Shown piece after piece: positions 1-26,442 of a stretch of DNA of 32,000 bases (within the stretch, counting starts at the first letter, position 1; every line of letters starts with the position of its first letter). The stretch lies in contig OZ246396.1 of NCBI GenBank assembly GCA_965230905.1, positions 240,001 to 272,000 of the forward strand, in the 5' to 3' direction. The notes under the pieces are model-generated. The model ran no database searches, was not told the origin of the DNA, and saw only the letters and a list, made by a program, of their open reading frames with translations. The translations under genes and the position numbers were made by a program. Origin of the DNA: Candidatus Saccharimonadota bacterium (GTDB lineage Bacteria; Patescibacteriota; Gracilibacteria; UBA1369; 2-02-FULL-48-14).

Positions 1-723
1 ATTTTCCATGCGCTCAAAAAGATTTTGAAGCAGAATGGCCACTCAACCGGAGTGGGAGATGAAGGGGGATTTGCGCCAAATTGTAAGACCAACGAAGAAC
101 CCCTCGAGTTTTTGCTCAAGGCCATTGAAGCCGCGGGTTATAAGGCCGGTTCCCAGGTTGGAATTGCCCTCGATCCGGCCGTGAGCGAGCTGTGGAAAGA
201 TGGCCATTACGAATTCGCCAAAAGCGGTGCGGGTGCTAAAACTTCAGATGAAATGATTGCCATGTGGGAAAGCTGGCTCACTAAATACCCCATTGTTTCT
301 TTGGAGGATGGCCTCGCGGAAAACGACTGGGCGGGCTGGAAGAAACTCAACGAAGAGATGGGAAAACGTGTGCAATTGGTGGGAGATGATTTTCTGGTGA
401 CCAATACGAAGTTTTTGAAGCGCGCGATCGACGAAAACTGTGCCAATTCCATTCTGGTGAAGGTCAACCAAATCGGAAGCCTAACGGAAGCGATGGAAGC
501 CGTGAGGATGGCCCAAACTGCGGGTTGGAAAGCCGTGATGTCGCACCGAAGCGGTGAGACCGAAGACACGACTATCGCCGACCTTGCCGTGGCACTTGAA
601 ACCGGTCAAATCAAAACCGGTTCTGCCAGCCGCTCCGACCGAATTGCGAAATACAATCAATTGCTGCGCATTGAAGAAGCCTTGGGTGACAAAGCACGGT
701 TTGTGAATCCGTTTGTGAAATAA
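1..723 (+). CDS. eno: Enolase (phosphopyruvate hydratase), C-terminal part. The 5' end lies upstream of the window.
   Basis: The frame is open from base 1. The translation contains the enolase hallmark [18 protein letters not shown], plus [23 protein letters not shown] and [13 protein letters not shown]. Stop TAA at 721-723. Confidence 0.93.
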
Positions 724-754
724 CAGGAGCAAACTCGCCTTTGGCGAGCAATCA

Positions 755-1215
755 AAAACCGACTTTTCTCTCGAGGACTCAGGCGCTAATTTCTGAGCGC
801 TGGCCTCATGGTGAGGGAAAGGTCGGTTCTGTGAATGGTGACGAACTCCATTCTGTTTTTGTTTTTCATCTGCTGTACTTCGGTCGATTTTATGGCCGGA
901 CCGGGGCTGTCCTTGGCGTGGATACAGGTCACTGTGCCGAAGCAGGGAGTGAAAGCAAGAACCACAGAACGATACGAGAGTCTTTCTCTCTCATGGGTGA
1001 TCTAGTCGAGACCACCAGCGTAAAGCAGAGCCGTTTAAGGTAAAGTAACTTTTGTCCCAAAGGGACCTACGTGTTTTTGTCTGAGTTTTGAATGGGCGGT
1101 GAAACGTTTTGTTTTTGCGTTTCATACCAATATACGTGGCGATGTACCGCTTATCAAGTTTCTGTCGTGGACATGAACACAAAATTGTTTCAGGGTAGAT
1201 TGTTTTTACCTGAAA
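755..1215 (+). ncRNA. Unclassified large structured RNA candidate, tandem copy A
   Basis: A 14-bp helix pairs 759-772 with 813-826 and includes two U-G wobbles. Further hairpins: 783-787/796-800, 833-838/848-853, 1101-1106/1118-1123 and 1180s-1215. A long-range helix pairs 878-883 with 937-942. The overlapping ORF 741..1043 is not conserved in copy B. Confidence 0.45.
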
Positions 1216-1252
1216 GGGCATAGCCTTCTAGATAAACTTTCCGGACAATAAA

Positions 1253-1732
1253 AAAACCGACTTTTCTCTCGAGGACTCAGGCGCCAATTTCGGGCGCTGG
1301 CCTCATAGTGAGGGAAAGGTCGGTTCTGTGAAAGGCGATGAACTCTTTCTATTTTTATTTTTCATCTACTGTACTTTGGTCGACTTTAGGGCCGGACCGG
1401 GGCTACTCTTGGCGTGGATACTAGTCACTGTGCCGAAGCAGGGAATGAAACGAGATCCACAGAGTGGAGGGTGAGAGTCTGAGTCTCGTGGGCAATCCAA
1501 TCAGGATCACCAGGGTAAAGTAGAAGCCGTTGAAGGTAAAAGAACTTTTTGTTTCTGTTTCGATTTTTGAATGAGCGGTGAAACGTTGCTTATTCTGTGT
1601 TGGCGCCGTCGTGTCCCGTTGGCGTCGACTTCAGCGTTTCAAATCAATATACGTGCCGCGGCATGGCTTATCAAGTTTCTGTAATGGACTTGAATAAGAA
1701 ATTGTTTCAGCTTGGCTAATTTTAATCTGGAG
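1253..1732 (+). ncRNA. Unclassified large structured RNA candidate, tandem copy B
   Basis: Colinear with copy A at an offset of 498 bp. The same helices are retained: 1257-1270/1310-1323, 1281-1285/1293-1297, 1330-1335/1344-1349, 1374-1379/1433-1438 and 1580-1585/1635-1640. Differences from copy A are compensatory or wobble changes. Confidence 0.45.
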
Positions 1733-1796
1733 TGGTATTTTGATTTTCTTGCTAAAAAAAGTATTTTAATTCATAATTTGGGAGCCTTAACCCGTT

Positions 1797-6053: not shown

Positions 6054-6931
6054 GCAAATCATTAAAAATGCTGGAGAAAGTCACCGAATTGGACACCGCT
6101 TCCAAATGCAACTGGTGCCCGGGTTGTGGTGACTTTGGAATTTTAGTGGCGCTGAAGCAGGCGCTGTTTGAACTCAAACTCGACCCGGAAGAAACGATGA
6201 TTGTTTCTGGAATTGGATGTGGATCACAAACACCGCATTTAATAAAAGTGTACGGCTTTCACTCCCTGCATGGACGCGCGCTGCCCGTGGCAACCGGAAT
6301 GAAAATTGCAAACCACAAAATGAATGTGATCGTGATTGGCGGAGACGGAGACGGCTATGGAATTGGGATGGCGCACTTGGTTCACAGCTCACGACGCAAT
6401 TTCAACCTCACGTACATTGTGCAGAACAATCAGGTTTACGGGCTTACAAAGGGGCAAACCTCGCCTACGAGCGACCATGGATTTAAAACCAAGAGCACGC
6501 CGGAAGGAGTGATTGAAATGGCGGCTCGGCCGCTGGGAATTGCACTCGCATCGGGCGCAACTTTCCTCGCACGCGGATACGCCGGGGATATTATGCATTT
6601 GAAGAAAATGATCATGGAGGGAATTCAACACAAAGGATTTTCACTCATAGATGTTTTGCAACCCTGCGTGACCTTCAACAAAGTGAACACGTACCAATGG
6701 TACCAAGAACGTATTCGCAAGCTCGAAAATGAACCCGGCTATGATCCTACGAACCGCGCCATGGCGTTTGAAAAGGCGGAGGAATGGGGCGATAAGATCA
6801 ACATTGGGGTCTACTACAAAGAATCGCGTCCGACCTACGAGGACGAACTGCCCATGCTAGCCAAAGAGCCACTTGTGGATCAGGCTATCGAGGGTATTGA
6901 CATAAGCAAAGAAATGATGTTTTATATGTAA
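6050..6931 (+). CDS. 2-oxoacid:ferredoxin oxidoreductase, beta (TPP-binding) subunit
   Basis: Contains the CPGCGDFG and GGDGDGYGIG thiamine-diphosphate-binding motifs. ATGA overlap with the alpha subunit. Confidence 0.88.
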   Translation: MSKSLKMLEKVTELDTASKCNWCPGCGDFGILVALKQALFELKLDPEETMIVSGIGCGSQTPHLIKVYGFHSLHGRALPVATGMKIANHKMNVIVIGGDGDGYGIGMAHLVHSSRRNFNLTYIVQNNQVYGLTKGQTSPTSDHGFKTKSTPEGVIEMAARPLGIALASGATFLARGYAGDIMHLKKMIMEGIQHKGFSLIDVLQPCVTFNKVNTYQWYQERIRKLENEPGYDPTNRAMAFEKAEEWGDKINIGVYYKESRPTYEDELPMLAKEPLVDQAIEGIDISKEMMFYM

Positions 6932-6941
6932 CTTAACTCTT

Positions 6942-7217
6942 ATGCCAAAAATCACCAATAAGTCGACTGGAGCTACTGCGCAGTGTGCGGTGGGTGCCAA
7001 CTTCCGAGACGTGGCTCAAACGGAAGGACTGGACGTACCCTTTGGCTGCGAAAGCGGAATCTGCTCAACTTGTCTGATTCAGATCCGCAGTGGAGCTGAA
7101 AACATCGGCCCAAAGACGGAGCAAGAAGAGTTTACCCTCGAAGCCCGTGGCGCGGGACCTGACGTTCGCTTGGGATGCCAGTGCACGATCAATGGAGATA
7201 TAGAATTTGAACAATAA
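6942..7217 (+). CDS. 2Fe-2S ferredoxin (plant/adrenodoxin-like Cys pattern)
   Basis: 91 aa with the pattern CESGICSTCL ... C, i.e. Cx4CxxC plus a distal Cys in LGCQC. Confidence 0.75.
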   Translation: MPKITNKSTGATAQCAVGANFRDVAQTEGLDVPFGCESGICSTCLIQIRSGAENIGPKTEQEEFTLEARGAGPDVRLGCQCTINGDIEFEQ

Positions 7218-9809: not shown

Positions 9810-11042
9810 ATGCAAAACCGTAACTATTCCCTCTGGGTTCTCTACGACTTCGCTAACTCGCTTGCGTTTGTAAACGTTTCTTTTTATTTCAGTCTTTGGC
9901 TGGTTTCCGACCACGGATTCTCAGATTTTTGGGTGAGCATTGCTACGGTCGCTTCCACGGTTTTGTTGCTTTTGACTTTGCCTTTTTTGAGTCATTTTTC
10001 GGATAGGACAGGTAAAAGGATCCTCTTCTTAAGGGTTTTCACCCTTCTTTCCATTTTGAGTTTGGGCATATTGGGTTGGTTGGCCATGAAGTTCCCCTTC
10101 ACCACTACACTTGGATTTACCGTGCTGCTCTTTTACTTCTTTTTTCAACTTTTTTTTCAAGGAAGTTTTTCTTTTTACAATGCATTCATTCAAGACTTTA
10201 CGGCTAAAAAAACAGCTGACCAAGTCTCTGGGATGGGAATGGGCTTCGGACAATTGGGGAACATGATTGGGATTTTGCTAGTTCTGCCCTTGGCAGAAGG
10301 AAGTATGAACTTACTTGGAGAAAGTGGACGTGGAGCCACTTTTTTCGCCTCTGCAGGCTTGTTTTTAATTTTTGCGCTGCCAAGCTTGCTTTTTCTGAAA
10401 GATAAAAGAGCACCGACGCCTTTGACTGAAAGGTTTAATTTTACCGGCAGTTTAAAGAAAGTTTTAAAAACACGTGGAGTACTTGCCTATTTGCTTTCTT
10501 ACTATTTTTTCGCAGACGCCATTTTGACGCTTCAACTTTTTGTAGGCCTTTATTTAGAAGAAGTCGCTGGCATGGACGACCGACAAAAAACACTGACCAT
10601 GGTGGTAGCCCTGATTTGTGGATGTCTAGGTGCTTGGCTGGCCCCTGCTTTTGCGCGCTGGATTAAAAGCAGTTACCGAGCGATTAAGTATTTAATACTT
10701 AGCTGGGCTATTTTACTGGGGCTGTTTAGTATGGCGGTTGCGCCGCTCTTTTTCTCTGTGCTCATCGTGCTAAATGGATTTGCTTTTGGTGCGCTTTTTG
10801 CACTTTCGCGTTCGTATTATTCTGAAATTACTCCTAAAGAGAGCCAGGCTGAGTATTTCAGCATTTATGTACTTTTTGAACGAGCTGCCTCCATTTTAGG
10901 ACCTTTAGTTTGGAGCAGCACGGTGCTTGTTTTTGCCAGCCATGGCGGAGATAAATATCGTTTTGCCATGTTTTCGCTCGCCATATTAGTTGCTATTAGT
11001 TTTGGGATTTTTCTCAAGGTTCCTAAAGACAAAACTTTATGA
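9810..11042 (+). CDS. MFS transporter (UMF1/Atg22-like subfamily by N-terminal motif)
   Basis: 410 aa with about 12 hydrophobic segments. The N-terminus WVLYDFANSLAFVNVSFYFSLWL is typical of this MFS subgroup. Its stop overlaps the start of the next gene (ATGA). Confidence 0.8.
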   Translation: MQNRNYSLWVLYDFANSLAFVNVSFYFSLWLVSDHGFSDFWVSIATVASTVLLLLTLPFLSHFSDRTGKRILFLRVFTLLSILSLGILGWLAMKFPFTTTLGFTVLLFYFFFQLFFQGSFSFYNAFIQDFTAKKTADQVSGMGMGFGQLGNMIGILLVLPLAEGSMNLLGESGRGATFFASAGLFLIFALPSLLFLKDKRAPTPLTERFNFTGSLKKVLKTRGVLAYLLSYYFFADAILTLQLFVGLYLEEVAGMDDRQKTLTMVVALICGCLGAWLAPAFARWIKSSYRAIKYLILSWAILLGLFSMAVAPLFFSVLIVLNGFAFGALFALSRSYYSEITPKESQAEYFSIYVLFERAASILGPLVWSSTVLVFASHGGDKYRFAMFSLAILVAISFGIFLKVPKDKTL

Positions 11043-12613
11043 AAAGCTGCATAAATTGCCAAAGCTCCTTCACCATTCGACCCGAAGATGAAGTTTTTTA
11101 TGGACGCATGGATGTTCCCGCACCGACTCACTGCCCCGCGTGCCGTGCACAACGGCGTTGGGCCTTTCGCAATCAATACAATCTCTACAAACGAACCTGT
11201 GACTTTAGTGGAAAAGAAATGCTCTCGCTTTATTCGCCGGACAAGCCATTGAAGGTTTATGAGGAATCGGTCTGGTGGAGCGACGCCTGGGATCCGCTGG
11301 ACTATGGACGAGACTATGACTTCTCGCGTCCATTTTTTGATCAATATAAAGAGCTGTTCTGGGCGGTTCCGCGCCATGCCATGCACCAGGATGGGACCAA
11401 TGAAAATTGCGATTATATAACGTATGGCGGCGGTAACAAAAGTTGCTACTTGGCCTTTGCGTGTATTTATAGTGAGGATATTTATTTCAGTAGTTTTTTG
11501 CTTTTCTGCAAAGACAGCTTGGACTCCACGCGCTGCATTGAAAGTTCACTTTTGTACGAATGCGTGGACTGTGAAAAATCGTATGAATGTTTTTTCTGCA
11601 AAGATTGTATCTCGTGCCAAGATTCGCTTTTCCTCGATGACTGCCGGAATTGTAAAAACTGTATCGGCTGTAAAAATTTGCGAAATAAGGAATATCACAT
11701 TTTTAATGAACCCGTTTCCAAGGAGGAATTTGAACGGGTGAAGGCGGAGATTTTAAAAGATGGCGGCCGGAGCTTTAAAGAGAAGTTTGATGCCTGGCGG
11801 CTGACGCAGCCTTACGTGTATGCACGCATAAACAACTCCGAAAATTGCGTGGGAAATTATTTGGAGAATGCGCACAATTCCTACCATTCTTTCGACTTGG
11901 TTATGGGTGCGGATGACTGCAACTATTGTATAAACGCGGGGTGGAAAGGAAAAGACATGTGGGACTGCACCATGACCGGGAAAGAGGCGGAACTTTTGTA
12001 TGAAATGCACGCCACGGTGAATACTCAACACTCTGCTTTTTGTAGTTTTATTCGCAGTTGCTCAGACATTTATTACTGCGACAGTATGGATGCGGCGCAG
12101 AATTGTTTTGGTTCCATCGGACTTCGCCATAAACAGTACTGCATCTTAAACAAGCAATATTCGAAGGAGGCGTATGAAGCGCTGCTACCCCGAATCATTG
12201 AACATATGAAGGCAACAGGTGAGTGGGGCGAGTTTCCGCCGATTTGGCTTTCGCCTTTTGCGTACAATGAGACCTTGGCGAATGAACATTTTCCTCTGAC
12301 TAAGGAGGCTGCTTTGGCGAAGGGCTATACGTGGAAAGACGAAGCAGTGACCGCAGTTGAGGGCGGCTGCAAAAGCTGTGGAAGAGCCTACAAAGTCATT
12401 CCGCAGGAAAAGGCCTTTTATGGACGTATGGGATTGCCGGAGCCTGAGAATTGCTGGAAATGCCGGCACGAACGGCGGTTCCGTAGCCGAAACCCTTATC
12501 GCTTGTGGAAGAGGAATTGCCACAAGTGTCAAAAGGAAATCGAAACCAGCTATTCCCCCGAGAGGCCGGAAATTGTATATTGTGAAACCTGTTATTTAGC
12601 AGACGTCTACTGA
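11039..12613 (+). CDS. Cys-rich paralog P1 (uncharacterised family: terminal double zinc-ribbon-like modules flanking two CxxC-repeat blocks)
   Basis: 524 aa. N-module: CINCQSSFTIRPEDEVFYGRMDVPAPTHCPACRAQRR. Central motifs: CFGSIGLRHKQYCILNKQYSKEAYEAL and TGEWGEFPP. The C-terminus ends CETCYLADVY-stop. Confidence 0.9.
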   Translation: MKSCINCQSSFTIRPEDEVFYGRMDVPAPTHCPACRAQRRWAFRNQYNLYKRTCDFSGKEMLSLYSPDKPLKVYEESVWWSDAWDPLDYGRDYDFSRPFFDQYKELFWAVPRHAMHQDGTNENCDYITYGGGNKSCYLAFACIYSEDIYFSSFLLFCKDSLDSTRCIESSLLYECVDCEKSYECFFCKDCISCQDSLFLDDCRNCKNCIGCKNLRNKEYHIFNEPVSKEEFERVKAEILKDGGRSFKEKFDAWRLTQPYVYARINNSENCVGNYLENAHNSYHSFDLVMGADDCNYCINAGWKGKDMWDCTMTGKEAELLYEMHATVNTQHSAFCSFIRSCSDIYYCDSMDAAQNCFGSIGLRHKQYCILNKQYSKEAYEALLPRIIEHMKATGEWGEFPPIWLSPFAYNETLANEHFPLTKEAALAKGYTWKDEAVTAVEGGCKSCGRAYKVIPQEKAFYGRMGLPEPENCWKCRHERRFRSRNPYRLWKRNCHKCQKEIETSYSPERPEIVYCETCYLADVY

Positions 12614-14244
12614 TGCCAAACTGTAAAAACTGCCAAAGCAATTTCTCTCTGGAAGAAGCGGATTTTGAATTTTTGAAAAAGTTTGATGTGCCGGCCCCTA
12701 CGTTCTGCCCCGATTGCCGGAATCAACGGCGGCTGGTTTTCCGAAATGACCGAAATTTTTATCGGCGGGAATGTGGGATGTGTAAAAAAGTCATCATTGC
12801 GATCTTTTCGGAGGACAAACCTTTCCCTGTGTACTGCAAGGACTGTTATTTGAGTGACGCTTTCGATCCGCTGCAATACGGCGTGGATTTTGACCCTTCA
12901 CGGCCGTTTATTGAGCAATTTGCAGAGATGCGTGCGCGGGTGCCGCGAGTGGCGAGCTTTCAAACACAGAGCGAAAATTCCGACTACACCGTGCACAGCG
13001 GCAAGAATAAAAACTGCTACATGGGCAGCTCGTACATGGAGTGTGAAAATTCTTATTACAGCCATTGGCTTTTTTATGCGAAAGACTGTCTGGACCTGTA
13101 TTTGTGCCAAAAAATGGAGCGCTGTTATTTCTGTACGAGCTGTGATGATTGCTACGGCTCCGCGTATTTGGAAAATTGCCAGGGTGTATCCTTTTCGTAT
13201 TTAAGTTTTGACTGTCGGAACTCGTCGCAACTGATCGGCTGCGTGGGACTGAGGCAAAAGACTCATCAGATTTTGAACCAATCTGCGAGCGAGGAGGAGC
13301 TTGCGAGCACACTTAAAAAACTCAACACGGACCCGGCTTTTCGCGCCGAATTTCAAAGAAAATATGATGAGCTTCGTTTGCAAGTGCCTGTGCCAGAAAT
13401 GTGGGTTAAGAACAGCGAAAATGTAAGTGGAAATTACATCACGAATTGCCGCAATGCTCAGCATTCATACAATGTGCGTGAGCTTGAAGACGCTCGTCAC
13501 GTTTACGAAGTTGGCCATTTGAAAGATGGAATGGATGTGACTCACTGCGCCAATGGTGAGTTCATTTATGAGGTGAAGGCGGTGATCGATTTGAGCTTCA
13601 GTAAGTTCTGTAATTTGTGTTACCAAAGCAGTCAGCTTGAATACTGCGACAACTGCCAATCCACGAAAAATTGTTTTGGCAGTATGGGGCTGAAGGGGCA
13701 TTCCTATTGCATTTTGAATAAGCAATACAGCAAGGAGGCTTACGAAAGTCTGCGCGCGCAGATCATTGAAAAAATGCGAGCAACTGGCGAGTATGGCGAG
13801 TTTTTTCCTGCAGCGCTGAGCCCTTTTGGCTACAACGAAACCAAGGCTATGGATCACTATGAACTCACGCGCGAAGAAGCCCTGGCTAAAGGCTTTAAGT
13901 GGAAGGACGAAGATCCCCGTTCATATCAGCCGCAGACCGCAGTACTTGCCGACGACATTGCAGCCGTACCCGACAGCATCACGAATGAAATTTTGGCGTG
14001 TAGCGAGTGCCGAAAGAATTTCAAAATAATCCCCCAGGAGTTGAAACTTTATCGTGAGCTCGGCGTGCCGGTGCCAAAAAAGTGTTTCGGTTGTCGACAT
14101 AAGGAAAGAAAGTCCCTCCAAAATCCTCGTAAGCTGTGGAATCGAGAGTGCGCGCAGTGTAAGGCCGCCATTGTTACGACTTATGGACCTGAGAAAAAAG
14201 AAAGGGTTTTTTGTGAGAAGTGTTATTTAGCTGCGATTTATTGA
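12613..14244 (+). CDS. Cys-rich paralog P2
   Basis: 543 aa, 35 Cys by my hand count. The start overlaps the P1 stop (TGATG). All four ribbon-like CxxC...CxxC sets are intact. Confidence 0.9.
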   Translation: MPNCKNCQSNFSLEEADFEFLKKFDVPAPTFCPDCRNQRRLVFRNDRNFYRRECGMCKKVIIAIFSEDKPFPVYCKDCYLSDAFDPLQYGVDFDPSRPFIEQFAEMRARVPRVASFQTQSENSDYTVHSGKNKNCYMGSSYMECENSYYSHWLFYAKDCLDLYLCQKMERCYFCTSCDDCYGSAYLENCQGVSFSYLSFDCRNSSQLIGCVGLRQKTHQILNQSASEEELASTLKKLNTDPAFRAEFQRKYDELRLQVPVPEMWVKNSENVSGNYITNCRNAQHSYNVRELEDARHVYEVGHLKDGMDVTHCANGEFIYEVKAVIDLSFSKFCNLCYQSSQLEYCDNCQSTKNCFGSMGLKGHSYCILNKQYSKEAYESLRAQIIEKMRATGEYGEFFPAALSPFGYNETKAMDHYELTREEALAKGFKWKDEDPRSYQPQTAVLADDIAAVPDSITNEILACSECRKNFKIIPQELKLYRELGVPVPKKCFGCRHKERKSLQNPRKLWNRECAQCKAAIVTTYGPEKKERVFCEKCYLAAIY

Positions 14245-15833
14245 TGCCAAATTTAAACCAAAACTGCCGCGTCACCGGGAAACCCTTTGTTATCACGGAA
14301 TGGGAGCAGGCTTTCTTGAAACGCATGGACATGCCCCTGCCCACGCTGTGCCCGGAGGAAAGGCAGCTGAAACGACTGGCGCATCGGAATGAACGTTCGC
14401 TCTACCAAAGGACTTGCGACCACTGTCAAAAAAATATGGTGGCCCTGTACCCAGCGGCAACTCCATTCCCTGTGTACTGCGGAGATTGTTTTTGGGGTGA
14501 TTCCTGGGACGGCGGCGGCTATGGCCAAGGCTATGATTTGAATCGACCTTTTTTTGAACAATTCAAAGAGCTGCTGAATCGCGTACCGCGGGTGGCCGTG
14601 CTGTCACGCAACTCACAAAATAGCGACTACACCAATTGTGAAGAACAAAATAAAAATTGCTACCTCACTTTTGGTGGTGGCTATTCCGAAGACTGCATGT
14701 ACAGCAACTTTGAACTGTACTGCAAAAATTGCGTGGACTGCTCGTACGTGCACAAGTGTGAACTTTGCTACGAATGCATGGACCTCGAGAATTGTTACCA
14801 TTGTTTTTATCTTACTGATTCCAAAAACTGCAGTGATTGTTTTTTGGGGAATGACTTGATCGGCTGTCACGATTGTTTCGGCTGCAAAGGTTTAAGGAAT
14901 AAGAATTTTTATATTTTTAACGAGCCTTATTCGGAAGAAGCCTATAAGAAGAAAGTGGCGGAGCTTTTACCAAAGATTCAAGATGCAGACGTGCAAGCCC
15001 GTTTTCAAGAACTGGTGCGAACCGTGCCGACTAAATTTGCGCAAATAAACAACTGCGAAAACAGCACGGGTGGATACCTATCCAACAGTCAAAATTGCCA
15101 GTGGTGCTTTGACGCGAAGAATGGGAAAGATTCGATGTATGTCACGTTTGGGGAAAGTTTTAAAGATGTGCTCGACTGCAACGTGAGTTACGTGGGGACC
15201 GAGCTGGTTTATAATTCTCAAAGCGTGTGTCTCAGTGCTTCGTTTGTACGCTGTTGTAATTTTTCATGGACCATAAGTTTTTCCGACTATTCTGATTCCT
15301 GTCACTACTCGAAGAATTTGTTTGGCTGCATTGGGCTGAAACATAAAGAGTACTGCATCCTCAACAAACAATATTCAAAGGAAGACTATGAAGCTTTAGC
15401 CGCGCAAATCATTGAAAAAATGAGGGCGGCTGGCGAGTGGGGCGAGTTTTTTCCTTTCTCTCCTTTTGCCTACAATGAGACCATTGCTCAAGAATATTTT
15501 CCGCTCACGCGTGAGGAAGCGGCCCGGCGTGGGTACGGATGGAAAGAAGAAAATTCCATCAATAATGCCACTGGAGAAGCGGGCACCTGTAAGCAGTGCA
15601 GCAAGGTATATCGCATCATCCCGCAGGAGAAAGCTTTCTATGAAAAGACGGGTCTGACTTCCCCACTGTTTTGCTACAATTGTCGCCACAAAAACCGTAT
15701 CAAACATCGTAATCCACCTTTCTTGTGGACGCGAGCCTGTGCGGAATGCAAAACACCGGTGGCGAGCAACTACCGTCCTGAACGGCCAGAGAAGATTGTG
15801 TGTGAGAAGTGTTATTTGGCTTCGGTTTATTGA
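14244..15833 (+). CDS. Cys-rich paralog P3
   Basis: 529 aa from the ATG at 14244, which overlaps the P2 stop (TGATG). The ORF track's 14220 start would add 8 unconserved residues. Confidence 0.88.
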   Translation: MPNLNQNCRVTGKPFVITEWEQAFLKRMDMPLPTLCPEERQLKRLAHRNERSLYQRTCDHCQKNMVALYPAATPFPVYCGDCFWGDSWDGGGYGQGYDLNRPFFEQFKELLNRVPRVAVLSRNSQNSDYTNCEEQNKNCYLTFGGGYSEDCMYSNFELYCKNCVDCSYVHKCELCYECMDLENCYHCFYLTDSKNCSDCFLGNDLIGCHDCFGCKGLRNKNFYIFNEPYSEEAYKKKVAELLPKIQDADVQARFQELVRTVPTKFAQINNCENSTGGYLSNSQNCQWCFDAKNGKDSMYVTFGESFKDVLDCNVSYVGTELVYNSQSVCLSASFVRCCNFSWTISFSDYSDSCHYSKNLFGCIGLKHKEYCILNKQYSKEDYEALAAQIIEKMRAAGEWGEFFPFSPFAYNETIAQEYFPLTREEAARRGYGWKEENSINNATGEAGTCKQCSKVYRIIPQEKAFYEKTGLTSPLFCYNCRHKNRIKHRNPPFLWTRACAECKTPVASNYRPERPEKIVCEKCYLASVY

Positions 15834-15873
15834 CTTTTTAAAACCTAAAAGTAAAATGGACTTGTTATATGAG

Positions 15874-15924
15874 GAAGTCGCGTCGCAAAGGGGTTGGTCC
15901 CGCGCCATGCGGCTTCATTTTTTA
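15874..15924 (+). terminator. Intrinsic terminator candidate after P3
   Basis: The outer stem pairs GAAGUCGC (15874-15881) with GCGGCUUC (15909-15916) and includes one U-G wobble. Inner CGC/GCG and GGG/CCC pairs follow, then A plus six U (15918-15923). The U-tract exists only on the + strand. Confidence 0.5.
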
Positions 15925-16391
15925 TATTCGAGTTTTTCCCTCAGATCAGATAGAGAGGGTATCCTTTTGTTAAAAGCTTTCTTCAAAAGCAGGGAACAAA
16001 ATCTGTAATCTGGGGATAGGACTAACATAAACTTACTTTTTCCGAGTAAGTATCTGACTAAACAGGCAAAATCACCGTCATTACTAAGCAACAAAGCTTG
16101 GTCGTATTCGGGGTAATCGATCATTGATTGCAAGACAAGCTCTGCATCAACATTAGCTTTAATCTTTCCATTAACAGAGATGGCTTCCTTAAAAATAAGT
16201 TCATAACCTATTTTCTTTAACCTTCTATAAAGATCTTCATTTTCAGGAAGGTATCCTAAAAATATATAAGTTCTTTTAATCTTATATTTGTCTCTTAAAT
16301 ATGTATAAAGTTTAGCCCAGTCTAGCTGCCAACCAGCCGATTTAGTGGCTCGATATACGTTATGTGCATCAATAAAAGCAAAGTTGTTCAT
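15915..16391 (-). CDS. NYN-domain (LabA/DUF88-like) putative ribonuclease
   Basis: 158 aa. FIDAHNVY at the N-terminus, NVDAELVLQSM and LLSNDGDFACLVRYL match the NYN acidic-residue pattern. Confidence 0.8.
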   Translation of the reverse strand: MNNFAFIDAHNVYRATKSAGWQLDWAKLYTYLRDKYKIKRTYIFLGYLPENEDLYRRLKKIGYELIFKEAISVNGKIKANVDAELVLQSMIDYPEYDQALLLSNDGDFACLVRYLLGKSKFMLVLSPDYRFCSLLLKKAFNKRIPSLSDLREKLEYKK

Positions 16392-16456
16392 TTTTAAAGT
16401 CTAAAACGAGTTCAAATATTTGGCTACTCACCAATAGCTCTCTAATCGAGAATTTC

Positions 16457-16498
16457 GCGTTGTTGTAAGTCTGACAACACCCTGCTATTTTGTAGTAT
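16457..16498. promoter_or_regulatory. Shared GCNTTGTTGT motif within an inverted repeat, plus a candidate P4 promoter
   Basis: GCGTTGTTGT at 16457-16466. Inverted repeat TGTTGT (16461-66)-N7-ACAACA (16474-79). Possible -35 CTGACA (16471-76), 16-nt spacer, -10 TAGTAT (16493-98). Confidence 0.4.
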
Positions 16499-16512
16499 CT
16501 AACAAGCTAAAG

Positions 16513-18183
16513 GTGACAAGCTGTAAGCAGTGCCAGAAAACATTCGAAGTTGCTCCTGAAGACCTCGCCTTTTATGATGAAATTTCTCCTAGTTTTGACG
16601 GCAGGAACTTTGCCATACCCACGCCCACAAAATGCTTCTATTGCCGGTTTCAGCAACGCCTCGCTTTCCGAAATGAGCGGAGCCTTTACCATCGCAAGTG
16701 TGATTTGAGCGGCAAGATGATTATTTCCAACTATGCGCCCGATAAACCCTATAAAGTTTACGAGCAAAGCGAATGGTGGAGCGATAAATGGGATGCGCTG
16801 AGTTACGGGCGGGACTTTGATTTCAATCGAAGTTTTACAGATCAATATAAGGAACTTTTGGAGGCAGTGCCGCATTCAGCGCTCACTACTCGGAATGCGG
16901 AAAATAGTGCCTACAGCAACTTTGCACTCAATCAAAAAAATACGTATTTGATTTTTGGATCCGGGGGCGCGGAAGACTGTCTGTATGGAAAATACATCGC
17001 GGATTGCAAGGACTGTGTGGACTGTTTGGCGGTTTACAATTGCGAGCTCTGCTATGAAGGAATCGGCAGTGAACGTTGCTACAACTGTCGCTACTTTATG
17101 AACTCACGCAATTGCACGGATTGCCTCATGATAGACAACTGCCAGTCGTGCAAAAATTGCATCGCCTGTTTTGGGCTGGTGTCCAAAGAATACTGCATTC
17201 TCAATCAATACGTTGGCAAAGAGCAATTCGAGGCGTTCCAAAAAGAATATGAATATTTAACTCCTGAAAAATTGGCGACTTTGCGGGAAAAACTCGACGA
17301 CTTGAAGGCCACTTTACCCCACCGCGAGGCACGGATTTTTGCGGGTGAGAATTGCAGTGGAGACAATGTTTACAACTCAAAAAACTGCCAGACTTGCTTC
17401 GACATTAAGGAGTGTGAAGACTGCAAATACACCAATTTCAGCCCCAAAAATAAGCGCAGCTACGACATCACGTTTAGCGCGCCCGGCGATGTAGAATTTT
17501 GTAATCAAATGTGCTCGACCACCAGTGTGCAGAAGTGCATGGCGGGCTTTTTAGTTTGGTTTGGAGGCAACATTTATTACTCCGAAGAATGTCACAATTG
17601 CAGCGATTGTTTTGGATGCACCGGACTGAAGGGCAAAAAATACTGCATCCTCAATAAGCAGTACACCGCGGAGGAATATCCAAAAATGGTGGCACGCATT
17701 ATTGAACACATGCAAAAGACCGGCGAGTGGGGCGAGTTTTTGGACTACAAACTTTCCATGTTCGGTTATAACGAAACCGTGGCGCAGGAATACTATCCAC
17801 TCAGCAAGGAGCAGGCCTTGGCCCAAGGAATGAACTGGTACGACAAACCCGTGGAGCGTTTGGAGGGCACCGTGATCAGCCAAATTCCCAAGGACATTCG
17901 CACTGTGGACGACACTATTTTAGAAAAAGTGCTCACCGGCGAAGTGCTTGGGCGCCAGTACAAAATCATTCCTCAGGAACTGACATTTTACCGCCGCATG
18001 AAAGTTCCGCTCCCCCGCCGTCACCCGGACATTCGCCATGCCGACCGAGTTGCTCTTCACAATCCCTATGTGCTTTTTGACCGCAGCTGCAGCAAGTGTA
18101 GTAAGGCCATTCAGACGACTTATAGCGAGGAGCGGGCAAAGATTGTATACTGCGAGAAGTGTTATCTTGAAACTGTTTATTAA
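16513..18183 (+). CDS. Cys-rich paralog P4 (GTG start)
   Basis: 556 aa. An AAAGG SD sequence precedes the GTG. The N-terminus MTSCKQCQKTFEVAPEDLAFY aligns with the other paralogs. Confidence 0.88.
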   Translation: MTSCKQCQKTFEVAPEDLAFYDEISPSFDGRNFAIPTPTKCFYCRFQQRLAFRNERSLYHRKCDLSGKMIISNYAPDKPYKVYEQSEWWSDKWDALSYGRDFDFNRSFTDQYKELLEAVPHSALTTRNAENSAYSNFALNQKNTYLIFGSGGAEDCLYGKYIADCKDCVDCLAVYNCELCYEGIGSERCYNCRYFMNSRNCTDCLMIDNCQSCKNCIACFGLVSKEYCILNQYVGKEQFEAFQKEYEYLTPEKLATLREKLDDLKATLPHREARIFAGENCSGDNVYNSKNCQTCFDIKECEDCKYTNFSPKNKRSYDITFSAPGDVEFCNQMCSTTSVQKCMAGFLVWFGGNIYYSEECHNCSDCFGCTGLKGKKYCILNKQYTAEEYPKMVARIIEHMQKTGEWGEFLDYKLSMFGYNETVAQEYYPLSKEQALAQGMNWYDKPVERLEGTVISQIPKDIRTVDDTILEKVLTGEVLGRQYKIIPQELTFYRRMKVPLPRRHPDIRHADRVALHNPYVLFDRSCSKCSKAIQTTYSEERAKIVYCEKCYLETVY

Positions 18184-18184
18184 A

Positions 18185-19795
18185 ATGAAACAAAGCTGTA
18201 AGAATTGCGCGCAAGACTTTGAAATAGCAGATTGGGATCTTCAACTCCTCGATCAAATTTCCCCCGTTTTTCAGGGTAAAAAGTTCAGTATTCCTGCGCC
18301 GGTACTGTGCCCAGGCTGCCGTCAGCAACGTCGCATGGCTTACCGCAATGAACGGAGCCTTTATAAACGTGACTGTGGCAAATGTAAGAAGCCCATGCTG
18401 TCCGTTTATTCAGAAGATAAGCCCTTCACTCTTTATTGCCGCGACTGTTGGTGGTCTGACGAGTGGAATGGCACAGATTTTACACAGGAGTTTGACTTCA
18501 ACCGACCTTTTGCTGAACAGTTTTATGAGTTGATGAAGAAAGTCCCCCAGCTTGGAATTGTGAATGCGGTGGATCAAAACAGTGACTACACCAATTATGG
18601 GTATCAAAACAAAGACTGTTATTTGATCTTCACTTCTGACTTCAATGAGAAATGTTCCTATGGCTGCTTTGTGTGGCGTTCTTTTGATTGTTATGACAAC
18701 CTATTTTTGCTGGAATCGCAGCTCTGTTACGAGTGCTTGGACTGCGTGAAATGTTATGGCTCAGCGTATTGCCGCGAGAGTGAAAGTTTGACGGACTGTT
18801 TTGGCTGCGTGGACTGCCGAAGCTGTGAATCGTGCTTTGGTAGCAGTGGACTTCGAAACAAGAAATACCATTTCTTCAATGAAGCCTTGAGCAAGGAGGA
18901 ATACGAGAAAAAAGTTGCAGAAGCAAAGGCGAACTGGCCCGAGACTTTGCAAAAGTTTAAAGAGGTTGGGAAAGAAACGCCACGCCGGAATTTGTTTTTA
19001 GTGCAATGTGAAAATGTGCTGGGTGACCACTTGAAAAACTGTAAAAATTCTTCCCATTGTTTTGATGGCCAAGAGTTGGAAGAGTGTAAATACATGACCA
19101 ATGCACCTGTTAAGTGTGATCACGACATGGATATTGATGGCGCAGGTTGGTTGTTTTGGTCTTATGAATGCATCAGCACACAGGGAAATCGGCAGCTTTT
19201 TTCCGACCATCATTGGCCAGAAGGATCGGACCTGACCTACTGCTCTTTCTCGATGGGGTCATCCAACTGCTTCGGCTCTGTGGGTGTGAAAAAAGGAAAA
19301 TATTGCATTTTGAACAAGCAGTATTCTAAAGACGACTACGAGGCGCTCATGGTGAAAATAATGGAGCACTTGGTGAAAACTGGGGAATGGGGCAATTGTT
19401 TCTTACCACCGTATTCGCGCTTTGCTTACAACGAAACCGTGGCCCAGCAATATTATCCGCTGACCAAGGAGGCTGCGTTGAAACTCGGTTACCGGTGGCA
19501 TGAAGAAAACGTGGAGAAATACAGTGGAAAAATGGATGACGTGGTGATTTGTGAGGTCAGTGGGAAGGCATTCCGGCTCATTCCCCAGGAGCTGGAGTTC
19601 TACAAAAAACTCGGCCTCCCCTTGCCTAAACGTCACCCAGAAGTGCGCATGAAAGATCGTGAAGCGCTGCGCAATCCACGACAATTTTGGACACGAGGAT
19701 GTGATTCGTGTGGGGTGCAAATGCAATCCACCTATTCGCCGGACCGGCCAGAGAAAGTGTATTGCGAAGCCTGTTATCTTAAAACCGTCTATTGA
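18185..19795 (+). CDS. Cys-rich paralog P5
   Basis: 536 aa from the ATG at 18185, 1 nt after the P4 stop. The N-terminus MKQSCKNCAQDFEI aligns with the family. The ORF-track start at 18038 lies inside P4. Confidence 0.88.
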   Translation: MKQSCKNCAQDFEIADWDLQLLDQISPVFQGKKFSIPAPVLCPGCRQQRRMAYRNERSLYKRDCGKCKKPMLSVYSEDKPFTLYCRDCWWSDEWNGTDFTQEFDFNRPFAEQFYELMKKVPQLGIVNAVDQNSDYTNYGYQNKDCYLIFTSDFNEKCSYGCFVWRSFDCYDNLFLLESQLCYECLDCVKCYGSAYCRESESLTDCFGCVDCRSCESCFGSSGLRNKKYHFFNEALSKEEYEKKVAEAKANWPETLQKFKEVGKETPRRNLFLVQCENVLGDHLKNCKNSSHCFDGQELEECKYMTNAPVKCDHDMDIDGAGWLFWSYECISTQGNRQLFSDHHWPEGSDLTYCSFSMGSSNCFGSVGVKKGKYCILNKQYSKDDYEALMVKIMEHLVKTGEWGNCFLPPYSRFAYNETVAQQYYPLTKEAALKLGYRWHEENVEKYSGKMDDVVICEVSGKAFRLIPQELEFYKKLGLPLPKRHPEVRMKDREALRNPRQFWTRGCDSCGVQMQSTYSPDRPEKVYCEACYLKTVY

Positions 19796-21432
19796 TGTCG
19801 ACCTGTAAACAGTGCAATCGCCCTTACGAAATCACTTCTGAGGATGAGGGTTTTTATAAAAAATTCAGTGCCAGGGATTTGGGTCGTTGCTTTGAATGTA
19901 GCCAGAAAAATCATCTGGCACTTCGCAATGCGCGCTGTTTGTATCACCGAAAATGTGATGCTACCAGTGAGGATACTATTTCTATGTATTCGCCGGATAA
20001 ACCTTACAAAGTCTATAAAAGTGATCACTGGTACAGCGACGCTTGGGATGCCATGGATTATGGACAGGATTTTGACTTTTCTCGGTCTTTTTTTGGACAA
20101 CTCAAGGAGTTACAGCTCAAAGTACCACGCCTGGCTTTGTCCAACATCAACGCCATGAACAGTGACTACTGCAACTCTTCCTATGGAAATAAAAACTGTT
20201 ATTTAATCTTTGGCGGTGACAACAACGAAGATTGCATGTTCGGGACCTTATGTATGAAAAATACACGGTCGCTGGATTTGGACTTCAGCAATTTCAACGA
20301 ACTTTCTTACATGCTTGCTGACTGTTTTCAGTGTTACAACACTCAGTTCGCCATAGACTCCAAGAGTTGTACCGACAGCGCTTTTTTGAGCGATTGTACC
20401 AGTTGTAGTGACTGTATTTTATGCAGCAATTTGGTGAATAAATCCTACTGCATCCTAAATAAGCAGTATTCTAAGGAAGAATATTTCTTAAAAAAAGCTG
20501 AGCTTTTAAATGGGACTTACTCACAACAAAAGCAGTTATTTGACTCATTTAAAGCACTACTCGGCGAGCGCATTGTGAAATATGCCCACACGGTTTCCTG
20601 CCAAAATTGTAGCGGTGATTATATTAAGAACAGCAAGAATTGTACGATGTGCTTCAACGTTACGGACAGCGAAGATTTGAGAAATATTGTTTTTGCGAAT
20701 AAGAGCAAGGATTGTTTCAATTCCAGCATGTTGGGTGACAATAGCGAGTTGGCTTACGAAACGGTTTCCGCTTACCGCGCTTACAATGTTCAATTTTCTT
20801 TTTTTGTGATTGATTCGAGCAATATTGAATACTGTGACGTTGCGATCAATTCAAAAGATTTGTTCGGCTGCGTGGGCATGCGCAATAAGCAGTACTGCAT
20901 TTTTAACAAGCAATATAGTAAGGAAGACTTTGAGTATTTACGCACAAAGATTATTGAACACATGAAGAAGACCGGGGAATGGGGTGAGTTTTTCCCAAAA
21001 ACATTTTCCTGTTTTGCTTACAATGAAACCACGGCAAATGTGTATCAGCCGATGACCAAAGAACGTGCACTTGCCGAAGGCTATACGTGGAAGGATGAAG
21101 ACCACAAAAAAGTCCATATTCCGTCCTCACCACTTCCAGATAAAATTGAAGACGTTTCTGATTCTATTTTAAAAGAGATTCTTTTATGTGAGGGGTGCCA
21201 AAAAAATTATCGCATCATTTCACAAGAGCTACAGTTTTATAGAGCCCAGCGGCTTCCCATCCCTCACTTGTGTTCAGAATGTCGACAAGGAGTTCGCAAA
21301 GATCTCCTCAACCCTAGACAACTTTGGCAGCGCCCATGCGACTCCTGTGGAAGCTCTATGCAAACCACCTATTCGCCCAAGCGACCCGAAAAAGTGTATT
21401 GTGAAGCCTGTTATCTTAAAACAGTCTACTGA
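19795..21432 (+). CDS. Cys-rich paralog P6
   Basis: 545 aa. The ATG at 19795 overlaps the P5 stop (TGATG). Confidence 0.88.
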   Translation: MSTCKQCNRPYEITSEDEGFYKKFSARDLGRCFECSQKNHLALRNARCLYHRKCDATSEDTISMYSPDKPYKVYKSDHWYSDAWDAMDYGQDFDFSRSFFGQLKELQLKVPRLALSNINAMNSDYCNSSYGNKNCYLIFGGDNNEDCMFGTLCMKNTRSLDLDFSNFNELSYMLADCFQCYNTQFAIDSKSCTDSAFLSDCTSCSDCILCSNLVNKSYCILNKQYSKEEYFLKKAELLNGTYSQQKQLFDSFKALLGERIVKYAHTVSCQNCSGDYIKNSKNCTMCFNVTDSEDLRNIVFANKSKDCFNSSMLGDNSELAYETVSAYRAYNVQFSFFVIDSSNIEYCDVAINSKDLFGCVGMRNKQYCIFNKQYSKEDFEYLRTKIIEHMKKTGEWGEFFPKTFSCFAYNETTANVYQPMTKERALAEGYTWKDEDHKKVHIPSSPLPDKIEDVSDSILKEILLCEGCQKNYRIISQELQFYRAQRLPIPHLCSECRQGVRKDLLNPRQLWQRPCDSCGSSMQTTYSPKRPEKVYCEACYLKTVY

Positions 21433-23051
21433 TGAACGCTTGTAAGCAATGCCAAAAACCGTTTGAAGTGACCGAGGTGGAACGAGAATTTTTGAAGAAA
21501 GTGGCGCCTACCGTGGGTGGACGTCAGTTTGAAATTCCCGAGCCTAAACTGTGCCCGGATTGCCGACGACAACGACGTTACGCGCAACGGAATGACCGAA
21601 ATATTTACCGCCGAACCTGTGACAAAACTGGGAAGTCCATTATCTCGGCGCATCACCCCGATAAACCCTTCCCCGTCTACGCCATTGATGTGTGGTGGAG
21701 CGATGCCTATGACCCTAAAGCCTACGGGCGTGACTTTGATTTTAGCCGGACTTTTTTTGAGCAGTTTAAAGAGCTTTCTTATACAGTTCCGCGGGCGGCT
21801 TCCATTGTGGTGGCTTCTGAAAATTGTGATTACACCATCTTCACCCTGCAGAGCCGGAACTGTTTTCTTTCGTCTCGTTTGGCGGAGGTAGAAGATATTT
21901 ATTATTCCTACCTCGCTTTTAAAAGCCGTTCCTGTTTTGACGGCTACAATTTGATGGAATGTGAACTGTGCTACGAGTGCGTGGACTGTGGGAAATGCTA
22001 CCAATGTATGTACACCACCAGTTCAAAAGGCTCCTTCAACTTGATGTTCTGCAGCGACATGTCTGGTTCCAATAATTGTTTTGGATGCGTGGGGATGGTT
22101 CAAAAACAATACTGCTTTTTCAATCAACAACTCAGCAAAGAAGAGTACGAAAAACGCGTGAAGGAATGCTTCGATGGCTCTCACGAAAGTGTGCTGCGCT
22201 GCCAAGCGGCGTTTGCCGAACATAGCAAAAAATTCCCTGTACGAGCAACGCAAGTTTTCAACTCTGATAATGCACAAGGCAGCCACATATTTGAGAGCAA
22301 AAACGTCATCAACTCCTACGATATCGCCGGCTCGGAAGATATCATCAATTGCACTCAAACTGAAACGAGCAAAGACATGATGGACTGTGACTTCACCTAC
22401 GTCTGCGAGCTCTCTTACGAGCTTATTTCAGGAGGGAAAAGCATGCGGAATTTGTTTTCTTTCTCGCTGGTGGGAAACAACAACGACGTCATGTATTCGC
22501 ACTATTGCAATAATGGGAATCAGAATTTGTTTGGATGCGTGGGCATGAAAAACAGCAAATATTGCATCTTTAACAAGCAGTACACCAAAGAGGAATACGA
22601 AGAACTCGTGCCACGAATCATTGAGCACATGCAGAAGACAGGCGAGTGGGGTGAGGGGATACCCATTGAACTTTCTACCATGTCTTATAACGAAAGTGCT
22701 GCGCAAGAACGATTTCCCCTGACTAAAGAAGAAGTGCTGGCTCGCGGATGGACTTGGTACGACGCGCCCGAAAGCACGGTGGCGCAGGCCGAAGGCGAGA
22801 ATGTGGTTCACTGTGAAGTAAGCGGCAAATCTTTCCGTCTCATCCCACAGGAATTGAAGTTTTACAAAGACATGGGCCTGCCCTTGCCCACGCGTCACCC
22901 CGATGTCCGCCACCAGGATCGTTTAAATCGCCGCACGCCCTACCAATTGCATGAAACCAAGTGTCGCAAGTGTGGAGAGGACATGATGACCGACCAAAGC
23001 GAAAACAAGCTTATTTACTGCCAGAAGTGTTATTTGGCAGAGACTTACTGA
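21432..23051 (+). CDS. Cys-rich paralog P7
   Basis: 539 aa. The ATG overlaps the P6 stop (TGATG). Confidence 0.9.
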   Translation: MNACKQCQKPFEVTEVEREFLKKVAPTVGGRQFEIPEPKLCPDCRRQRRYAQRNDRNIYRRTCDKTGKSIISAHHPDKPFPVYAIDVWWSDAYDPKAYGRDFDFSRTFFEQFKELSYTVPRAASIVVASENCDYTIFTLQSRNCFLSSRLAEVEDIYYSYLAFKSRSCFDGYNLMECELCYECVDCGKCYQCMYTTSSKGSFNLMFCSDMSGSNNCFGCVGMVQKQYCFFNQQLSKEEYEKRVKECFDGSHESVLRCQAAFAEHSKKFPVRATQVFNSDNAQGSHIFESKNVINSYDIAGSEDIINCTQTETSKDMMDCDFTYVCELSYELISGGKSMRNLFSFSLVGNNNDVMYSHYCNNGNQNLFGCVGMKNSKYCIFNKQYTKEEYEELVPRIIEHMQKTGEWGEGIPIELSTMSYNESAAQERFPLTKEEVLARGWTWYDAPESTVAQAEGENVVHCEVSGKSFRLIPQELKFYKDMGLPLPTRHPDVRHQDRLNRRTPYQLHETKCRKCGEDMMTDQSENKLIYCQKCYLAETY

Positions 23052-23803: not shown

Positions 23804-23816
23804 GTCGCTTGGATTC

Positions 23817-23873: not shown

Positions 23874-23930
23874 GGCAATGTTAGTTATAAACTTACAGCT
23901 ATGCTAAAATTGAGTTAATTAAAATTCATT

Positions 23931-26368: not shown

Positions 26369-26372
26369 TTGC

Positions 26373-26432: not shown

Positions 26433-26442
26433 GTAAGCTGCT

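Follow-up and report, generated by a model that had tools for sequence, protein, structure and literature searches.

The window analysed here, a 32,000-nt stretch of the genome of a Candidatus Saccharimonadota bacterium (assembly GCA_965230905.1, contig OZ246396.1, positions 240,001 to 272,000 of the forward strand), carries two old paralogs of a previously undescribed family of structured RNA genes of about 380 nt in Peregrinibacteria. The two genes occupy the 1.07-kb gap between the enolase gene eno, which ends at position 723, and the L-serine dehydratase gene sdaAB, which starts at position 1797. They are very probably transcribed from the minus strand, opposite to both flanking genes. The reading towards which we lean is that they encode a new structured non-coding RNA (ncRNA) that acts independently in trans, possibly by titrating a protein.

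Conserved structure of the repeated unit

Both flanks of the gap could be assigned from protein domains (all coordinates are window positions unless a related locus is named):

1..723, plus strand: 3' part of eno, left flank (Pfam Enolase_C, E=2.8e-94; the entire gene is present in the related contig L001)
1797..2480, plus strand: sdaAB, L-serine dehydratase beta subunit, right flank (Pfam SDH_beta; the names of homologs agree)

An earlier note on this DNA, made from the letters alone, had described two colinear direct copies in the gap. These are real: their start-to-start spacing is 496-517 bp and their mean column identity 82%, copy A (next to eno) and copy B (next to sdaAB) were aligned by nhmmer at E=1e-76, and no third copy was found in the whole window. 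Homologs were gathered in two ways, from the contigs of SdaAB homologs and by one pattern scan each of genome and metagenome collections. The scans also returned many chance matches in high-GC phyla, which were discarded by nhmmer.

A consensus fold was built on an alignment of 20 copies and comprises 67 pairs in 11 helices. Pairing in these positions reached 95.0%, compared with 36-47% in slid controls, in which the partners were moved by 1-3 columns. Changes on both sides of the pair were found in 33 of the 67 pairs, against 15.6±2.3 in shuffled alignments (none of 500 shuffles reached 33), and the covariation score was 0.290 against 0.169 in the shuffles. Covariation among the homologs is thus far above the controls, and the proposal of a structured RNA stands. 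Three of the helices that had been read from the two window copies, namely the basal hairpin 759-772/813-826, the apical helix 783-787/796-800 and the hairpin 833-838/848-853 (here called Ph), are real and covary across the 20 homologs. Two others had to be given up: the short helix 907-910/924-927 is not retained in the family (22 of 80 Watson-Crick cells), and the long-range helix 878-883/937-942 is near-invariant, shows no double-sided change and competes with better-supported helices.

The core of the fold, helices 1-8, is 98-100% paired and includes 16 pairs with double-sided change. It forms a five-way junction flanked on both sides by exposed AAAAACAAAAACA tracts. Its helices covary while the junctions stay invariant, and the nucleotides of the junctions and loops, for example GGUCCGGCCCUAAAGUCGACCAAAG, are the most conserved part of the RNA.

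No coding signal accompanies this structure. Of the eight indels that separate the window copies, seven have a length not divisible by 3, the variable columns show no codon periodicity (p=0.66), and no protein-coding frame is conserved across the copies. A coding interpretation was ruled out on the phase of the indels and the absent periodicity. The open reading frame (ORF) at 741-1043 has no counterpart in copy B, as the earlier note had stated, and it also has no Pfam match.

The RNA could not be placed in any known family, in agreement with its first description as unclassified. Rfam 15 gave no match at the gathering threshold across the whole window, and a search of positions 700-1820 on both strands at E<=10 returned noise only (sR15 at 15 bits, Xist at 14 bits) and nothing credible. 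The families thereby unmatched include RNase P, transfer-messenger RNA (tmRNA), 6S, signal recognition particle (SRP) RNA, OLE, GOLLD, ROOL, raiA, HEARO, CrcZ, CsrB, T-box and the riboswitches. The region of the distant homolog in locus L110 likewise gave no credible Rfam match, ARAGORN found no tRNA and no tmRNA on either strand of the window, and the literature on ncRNAs in Peregrinibacteria and the candidate phyla radiation (CPR) yielded nothing relevant and no paper describing such an RNA. The form of 6S RNA, about 185 nt in a long rod that is closed by the paired 5' and 3' ends and opens in a central bubble, was not found here; the present RNA has independent 5' and 3' hairpins, a five-way junction and a length of 370-390 nt. 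Two further candidates were rejected. An identity with RNase P RNA, suggested by strings such as GAGGAAAGUCCGG and ACAGAACCCGGCUUA, was dropped, as these strings are each other's pairing partners within the terminator hairpin and the covariance models give no match. A T-box or serine-responsive leader of sdaAB was dropped on account of a conserved sdaAB promoter downstream of the unit and of the location of the RNA on the other strand.

Anatomy and strand of the two RNA genes

The earlier note had taken each unit of about 480 nt as one RNA read from the plus strand. The unit is instead composed of an RNA gene of about 370-390 nt and a promoter and upstream region of about 125 bp, and the evidence points to the minus strand; the plus-strand call is almost certainly wrong. 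The ends of the two RNAs (~1123→753 and ~1640→1250) were predicted from the positions of promoter and terminator. The parts of copy A, in the order of the minus strand, are followed below by those of copy B and by the sdaAB promoter:

1158..1247, no strand assigned: conserved region upstream of promoter A, reading …GTCCAC…AAACAATTT… on the minus strand (alignment A3, columns 531-600); candidate regulator binding region
1129..1157, minus strand: putative promoter of copy A, -35 TTGATA at 1152-1157, 17-nt spacer, -10 TATATT at 1129-1134 (promoter scan, 10/12 matches)
753..1123, minus strand: RNA gene copy A, eno-proximal paralog, ~371 nt, predicted ends (promoter, terminator, consensus fold, covariation)
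1100..1124, minus strand: 5' hairpin P1 of copy A (UGAAACG / CGUUUCA) with A-rich loop AAAAACAAAA (helix in 19/20 copies; loop insertion variable)
1048..1084, minus strand: A-rich tract 2 of copy A, …ACAAAAACA…AAAAG (columns 142-176 of alignment A5 unpaired; motif counts)
868..1032, minus strand: core of copy A, Pa closing Pb, Pc, the Pd/Pe/Pf arm with its C(UUCG)G loop, and Pg (five-way junction; covariance model R1)
851..868, minus strand: A-rich tract 3 of copy A, GAUGAAAAACAAAAACAGAAU on the minus strand (near-invariant in 20 copies; unpaired in the consensus; ARAAAYA enriched)
833..853, minus strand: hairpin Ph of copy A (helix 9, 94% paired, 3 pairs changed on both sides)
752..828, minus strand: predicted terminator of copy A, compound hairpin 757-828 followed by UUUUUGA at 752-758 (covarying stem and invariant U-run)
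1675..1748, no strand assigned: region that would be common to the divergent promoters of RNA copy B and sdaAB (conserved blocks)
1646..1674, minus strand: putative promoter of copy B, -35 TTGATA at 1669-1674, 17-nt spacer, -10 TATATT at 1646-1651 (promoter scan)
1250..1640, minus strand: RNA gene copy B, sdaAB-proximal paralog, ~391 nt, predicted ends (promoter, core model, consensus structure)
1749..1777, plus strand: putative sdaAB promoter, TTGCTA, 17 nt, CATAAT (promoter scan; conservation upstream of sdaAB in relatives)

Copy B shows the same build, with a terminator hairpin at 1255-1325 followed by U7 (1250-1256), a core at 1364-1527 and a P1 hairpin at 1579-1641. The lower stem of the copy A terminator has 16 pairs, 11 of them with double-sided changes, and the A-run that gives the U-run of the minus strand is invariant in the 20 copies. 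Between the core and Ph, copy A reads GAUGAAAAACAAAAACAGAA in minus-strand order (868-851), and a hairpin specific to this copy (1054-1066) breaks up its A-rich tract 2. Each RNA has 2-5 occurrences of the heptamer ARAAAYA against an expectation of 0.1-0.4. They lie some 55-95 and 250-295 nt from the 5' end, a layout shared by the distant L110 and L111 RNAs. The A-rich tracts are unpaired in the consensus, and a third tract is often found in the P1 loop.

The assignment to the minus strand is based on three independent lines, namely promoter, terminator and wobble pairs. On this strand, all 20 copies have TTGnnn and TAnnnT in the same place of the alignment, separated by 17 nt (16 in L108) that are unconserved and ungapped. 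The -10 element varies among TATATT, TACAAT, TACATT, TACAGT, TACTAT and TATAAT and is followed by GAUAUGAAACGC. Two conserved hexamers whose spacer is fixed in length and free in sequence are the hallmark of a sigma70-type promoter, and L111 has a minus-strand promoter of TTGTAA, 17 nt and TATAAT with 10/12 matches. That such promoters are in use in these organisms is indicated by the element upstream of sdaAB, which is kept as CTTGCA…CATAAT in 11 relatives and has the form TTGCnA-17-CATAAT. No conserved promoter was found on the plus strand of the units. In the window and in the 11 related loci the sdaAB promoter lies only about 20 nt from the start codon, which implies a very short 5' untranslated region.

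The basal hairpin together with an invariant run of 5-7 A reads, on the minus strand, as a hairpin followed by U5-7 in all copies, and this combination is the predicted intrinsic terminator of that strand. A simple terminator scan identified canonical minus-strand terminators at the same place in L110 and L111; those of the window were not flagged by it, as their hairpin is long and compound. In L108, L109 and L013, minus-strand genes abut the unit on its left side with their 5' ends.

The core helices (Pa, Pb, Pc, Pd, Pe, Pf, Pg and Ph), read on the minus strand, contain 788 Watson-Crick, 69 G·U and 3 A·C cells, and 98.5% of their cells are canonical on this strand compared with 90.9% on the plus strand. 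Examples are pair 217-229 (GU 11, AU 5, GC 4) and pair 283-300 (UG 10, CG 9). Only the minus strand has a C(UUCG)G tetraloop hairpin, at the invariant string that reads GCCGAAGC on the plus strand. All wobble pairs had earlier been said to be G-U on the plus strand, which is correct for the helices listed at the time and incorrect for the covarying core helices. Moreover, the plus strand is rich in G+U, which biases the G-U argument in its favour. When all predicted pairs were first pooled into one set, the count of 87 G·U to 49 A·C had pointed to the plus strand. It was rejected, having been driven by pairs specific to the plus-strand prediction that never covary, and the count per helix reversed its direction. 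Wobble pairs from two paralogs can thus mislead on strand; the call needed promoter and terminator signatures together with the wobble asymmetry of the whole family.

Two further observations concern the regions around the units. The conserved blocks upstream of each RNA promoter (1158-1247 and 1675-1748) read …CTGAAACAATTT…GTCCAC…CAGAAAC on the minus strand. The promoters of copy B and sdaAB stand back-to-back with 74 bp between them, and the upstream blocks may serve both the RNA and the divergent sdaAB promoter as a binding region for a regulator. Inspection of the upstream conserved region by eye only gave no convincing match to a LexA box or another known operator. On the plus strand, Ph together with UGUUUUUGUUUUU (833-866 and 1330-1362) resembles an intrinsic terminator, which the simple scan missed with its loop of 9 nt; this element could stop read-through from eno before it runs antisense through the RNA gene.

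Distribution and genomic neighbourhood

Close SdaAB homologs were labelled Candidatus Peregrinibacteria, Peribacteria or Gracilibacteria, which makes the host a CPR bacterium. Homologs of the RNA were found by nhmmer solely in Peribacteria/Peregrinibacteria loci. They come from about 16 genomes; in every case eno and sdaAB are the flanking genes, and the relative orientation does not change. Two copies, in tandem or split by an inserted gene, are present in eight genomes, and one copy in the others. The signature pattern was absent from viral contigs, and all genomic matches were at the eno-sdaAB locus, so that nothing indicates a mobile or phage-borne element. A Magasanikbacteria-like relative has neither the gap nor the RNA. 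Judged from these searches, the family is confined to Peregrinibacteria, within the CPR.

More distant members were found with a covariance model of the core (R1; 164 positions, 42 pairs). The model retrieves every known copy at 84-189 bits, and on the minus strand of the window it scores 169 bits for copy A (868-1032) and 183.5 bits for copy B (1364-1527). Matches of 30-34 bits (E about 1e-7) in L113, 19.8 bits in L111 and 15.1 bits in L110 are each the top-scoring hit of their own locus, at the expected place and strand, adjoining sdaAB. The SdaAB proteins of these three genomes are only 54-57% identical to that of the window. Pa, Pb, Pg and the base of Pd are retained in the alignments of L113, L111 and L110 and show compensatory differences. 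L110 and L111 lack eno as a neighbour, and their RNA is still divergent from sdaAB. The earlier note had left open whether the element goes with eno or with sdaAB; in the distant relatives it follows sdaAB and not eno.

In a distance tree, window copy A groups with the single copies of L046, L019 and L005, and window copy B with one copy of L013 (L013a) and with L015, while L045b and L052a stand apart from L045a, L052b and L077b. This grouping of paralogs shows a duplication older than the divergence of the sampled species, and both paralogs have been retained under structural constraint. Between its two full copies, L045 also has an isolated remnant (2131-2197) that matches the part with the terminator hairpin only.

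The genes that follow the RNA on its own strand are variable. No minus-strand gene is found after the RNA in the window, L046, L019, L005 and L047, where the 3' end of the convergent eno gene comes next. In other lineages ORFs begin 5-160 nt after the U-tract and encode MsrA, an S-adenosylmethionine (SAM) methyltransferase, a GNAT protein plus an unknown, or other unknowns:

Genes downstream of the RNA on its strand: L108 4987-5499, L109 4020-4532, L013 6172-6777, L052 5939-6505, L035 4993-6110, L006 4392-4742, L045 3151-3447

These lineage-specific genes are probably expressed by read-through of the terminator. A consistent same-strand gene family, as expected downstream of a riboswitch or leader, was not found. 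Since the genes after the terminator differ by lineage or are absent, the RNA does not serve as a dedicated leader. On the strand of the RNA, the stretch that separates it from eno is a hot spot for such lineage-specific genes.

In the same interval of the window, between the eno stop codon and the RNA terminator, a further small element was read from the sequence:

734..748, no strand assigned: small hairpin CTCGCC-TTT-GGCGAG

It occupies the same place in L019, L046 and L005, where the letters differ and the pairing is retained (CTCGCC/GGCGAG, CTGCAC/GTGCAG, ATTCGA/TCGAAT), and no U-tract follows it on the plus strand.

On the other side, the operon that diverges from the RNA is sdaAB-sdaAA-purN-PFOR. 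An identical SdaAB is encoded on the ENA contig L001, a sequence of 1.307 Mb from Hainich groundwater. Beyond the PFOR genes, an indel of about 155 bp sets L001 and the window apart (~15135-15620 in L001, ~6931-7207 in the window); the window therefore differs slightly in assembly or strain from this contig. Further to the right, nine tandem paralogous ORFs of 524-585 aa (11039-28109, plus strand) encode Cys-rich proteins that are pairwise 35-46% identical, with a Pfam signal limited to treble-clef zinc fingers at their ends. Such an array is a striking expansion of a gene family for a 1.3-Mb genome. It is directly followed by a gene for a TraG/VirD4-type coupling protein (TrwB_AAD_bind, T4SS-DNA_transf; 28359-30602, plus strand).

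Proposed mode of action and comparison with known RNAs

In the favoured reading, each gene would be transcribed from its own sigma70-type promoter into an RNA of about 370-390 nt that begins with P1, ends at the intrinsic terminator and is released as an independent molecule. The exposed and repeated (ARN)n-like A-rich tracts would bind and titrate an RNA-binding protein, and the folded core would stabilise the molecule or offer a second surface for binding, similar to CrcZ/CrcY with Hfq or CsrB/RsmZ with CsrA. Expression would be co-ordinated with serine and pyruvate catabolism through the shared divergent promoter region. The likeness to protein-titrating RNAs is drawn from the maintained paralogs, the exposed A-tracts and the fixed place beside a catabolic operon (serine to pyruvate to acetyl-CoA). 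Several unpaired short motifs per molecule, as in titrating RNAs, are present here, and their number is low next to CsrB. CrcZ titrates Hfq via A-rich motifs (PMC4063720). Taken by itself, a protein-titrating mechanism would be possible rather than probable.

A number of observations weigh against this reading. Strand, ends and independence of the RNA are all predictions. Two positions of the terminator stem are U·G on the plus strand and C·A on the minus strand, in 11/20 and 7/20 copies, and the terminator hairpin as a whole is balanced, with 26 G·U and 26 A·C. The RNAalifold energy is slightly better for the plus strand (-149.5 against -135.0), though this strand is G+U rich, and z-scores of the minimum free energy (MFE) fail to separate the strands. 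The A-rich tracts complement U-tracts that would be able to terminate plus-strand read-through from eno. In L108, L109, L013, L052 and L045 a minus-strand ORF begins 5-40 nt after the U-tract, and the RNA would there be a leader by read-through. As regards titration, A-rich tract 3 is shortened in L113, and the large invariant junction core exceeds the needs of a simple sponge. Neither Hfq nor CsrA was found in about 212 kb of Peregrinibacteria DNA searched, a sample too uninformative to count for much, and we know of no cognate protein for a sponge.

Four other explanations were weighed. One of them, close to refuted, is that the gap holds no RNA gene at all; it would be a conserved DNA regulatory region with operators and terminators that work in both directions, the decayed duplicate of a protein gene, or a mobile repeat. 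In line with this are the tandem and intergenic arrangement of the repeat, signals resembling promoters and terminators, which are features of DNA, and stop-free stretches of 47-116 codons in single copies. Against it stand the 33 compensatory pairs, the nearly complete pairing of the core helices and the strand asymmetry of the wobble pairs. There is, in addition, no conserved frame or codon periodicity, and in each genome the element keeps to a single fixed locus; viral contigs do not contain it. It is very improbable that each unit gives a plus-strand RNA of about 480 nt, as a processed 3' extension of the eno messenger RNA or a long sdaAB leader. The orientation of eno and sdaAB, the U·G pairs of the basal hairpin on the plus strand (UG 11, CG 7, UA 1 at one position), plus-strand MFE z-scores of -3.86 and -2.21 and the lower alifold energy would agree with it. 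However, this energy advantage stems from invariant, non-covarying G·U pairs in a G+U-rich strand, and the core helices would hold 69 A·C mismatches against 3 G·U. The conserved sdaAB promoter lies after the unit, which is therefore not the sdaAB leader, a conserved promoter is missing on the plus strand, and minus-strand genes abut the left end in three loci. The invariant A-run and the hexamers around an unconserved 17-nt spacer would be left unexplained by the plus-strand reading, whereas the minus-strand reading accounts for both.

The other two explanations accept a minus-strand RNA. One, which we regard as improbable, is that it acts in cis, either as a sensor or attenuator leader, with a riboswitch-like aptamer and a terminator that control read-through into any gene further downstream, or by its transcription insulating or interfering with the convergent eno transcript and the divergent sdaAB promoter. 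The order of promoter, conserved multi-helix domain and terminator is in line with this, as are the retention of the back-to-back position with sdaAB even in distant relatives and the closely following ORFs, which in L108 (msrA), L109, L013 (SAM methyltransferase), L052 and L045 have no space for a promoter of their own. Against it, such a gene is lacking in the window and in four further loci (L046, L019, L005 and L047), the first copy of a tandem array is followed by the promoter of the second, the downstream genes have no common function, and the roughly 300 nt before the terminator are far above known riboswitch sizes. Somewhat less improbable, and still doubtful, is an independent RNA in which the five-way-junction core is the active part, that is, a ribozyme, a trans-acting metabolite- or ion-binding RNA or the scaffold of a ribonucleoprotein (RNP), as a lineage-specific housekeeping RNA, with the A-rich tracts as linkers or by-products of terminators on the other strand. 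The conservation of the core points in this direction: its junction and loop nucleotides are the most conserved (GGUCCGGCCCUAAAGUCGACCAAAG, for example), its helices covary around invariant junctions, it is the recognisable remainder in the most distant homologs (L113, L111 and L110), and a reduced genome of 1.3 Mb spends 1 kb on the RNA. One or two copies as diverged paralogs are, however, more typical of regulatory than of essential catalytic RNAs, no resemblance to a ribozyme or riboswitch model was found, and no neighbouring protein gene is conserved. A phylum-wide new class of complex-folded RNA with an active junction core (a trans-acting metabolite sensor, ribozyme or RNP subunit), tied to the control of serine/pyruvate fermentation in these host-dependent bacteria of ultra-small size, would likewise be an unlikely outcome.

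The finding comes from CPR bacteria, which have very small genomes, are uncultivated and in which RNA biology is almost unexplored. Here an RNA whose multi-helix core is conserved takes up, in its two copies, about 1 kb of a genome of about 1.3 Mb, and the RNA has been retained beside the L-serine dehydratase/PFOR operon across deeply diverged Peregrinibacteria. Large, well-covarying RNAs without known function are rare, and past cases have led to new biochemistry, such as riboswitches, ribozymes and RNA-only assemblies.

With the housekeeping RNAs (RNase P RNA, tmRNA, 6S and SRP RNA) the present RNA shares its own predicted promoter and terminator and a conserved core, and its size overlaps that of RNase P RNA and tmRNA. 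Short strings recall the P4 strands of RNase P RNA (GAAAAGUCGG / ACAGAACCGAC), but here they form a local pairing within the terminator hairpin. In 6S RNA and RNase P RNA the 5' end pairs with the 3' end, which is not the case in the present RNA. It differs further from the housekeeping RNAs in having two diverged copies here, and no covariance model of theirs matched at E<=10 on either strand. The pairs PrrF1-PrrF2 and OmrA-OmrB are, like the two window genes, head-to-tail paralogous RNA genes, each with promoter, upstream regulatory region and terminator; they are, however, base-pairing small RNAs (sRNAs) of 80-150 nt with little structure, in contrast to about 380 nt and a complex conserved fold.

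CrcZ, CrcY and CrcX of Pseudomonas (Rfam RF01675) are independently transcribed RNAs of about 400 nt, often with two or more paralogs, and in size, number and predicted independent transcription the present RNA is like them. It also shares with them several exposed A-rich motifs of the (ARN)n type and a link to carbon and amino-acid catabolism (PMC4063720). It has no match to them in sequence or structure, its promoter is of the sigma70 type whereas that of CrcZ is sigma54/CbrB-dependent, and its large covarying junction core is absent from CrcZ. The sponges of CsrA and RsmA, namely CsrB/CsrC and RsmX/Y/Z, have repeated short unpaired motifs, a promoter and terminator of their own and paralogs that are sometimes in tandem, as found here. 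Their motif is GGA in hairpin loops, in contrast to the A-rich ARAAAYA, of which only 2-5 are found per RNA here, and no Rfam match links the two.

In intricacy, there is a likeness to OLE, raiA, ROOL, GOLLD and HEARO, large structured bacterial RNAs whose functions are unknown or have begun to emerge recently. These are larger and more intricate than ordinary sRNAs, with many covarying helices and invariant junctions, are restricted to certain lineages and have functions that cannot be deduced from sequence, and all of this applies to the present RNA. It is smaller than OLE, ROOL and GOLLD and matches none of the five Rfam models; unlike these RNAs, it shows no association with phages or mobile elements and resides at a fixed chromosomal locus in a CPR lineage.

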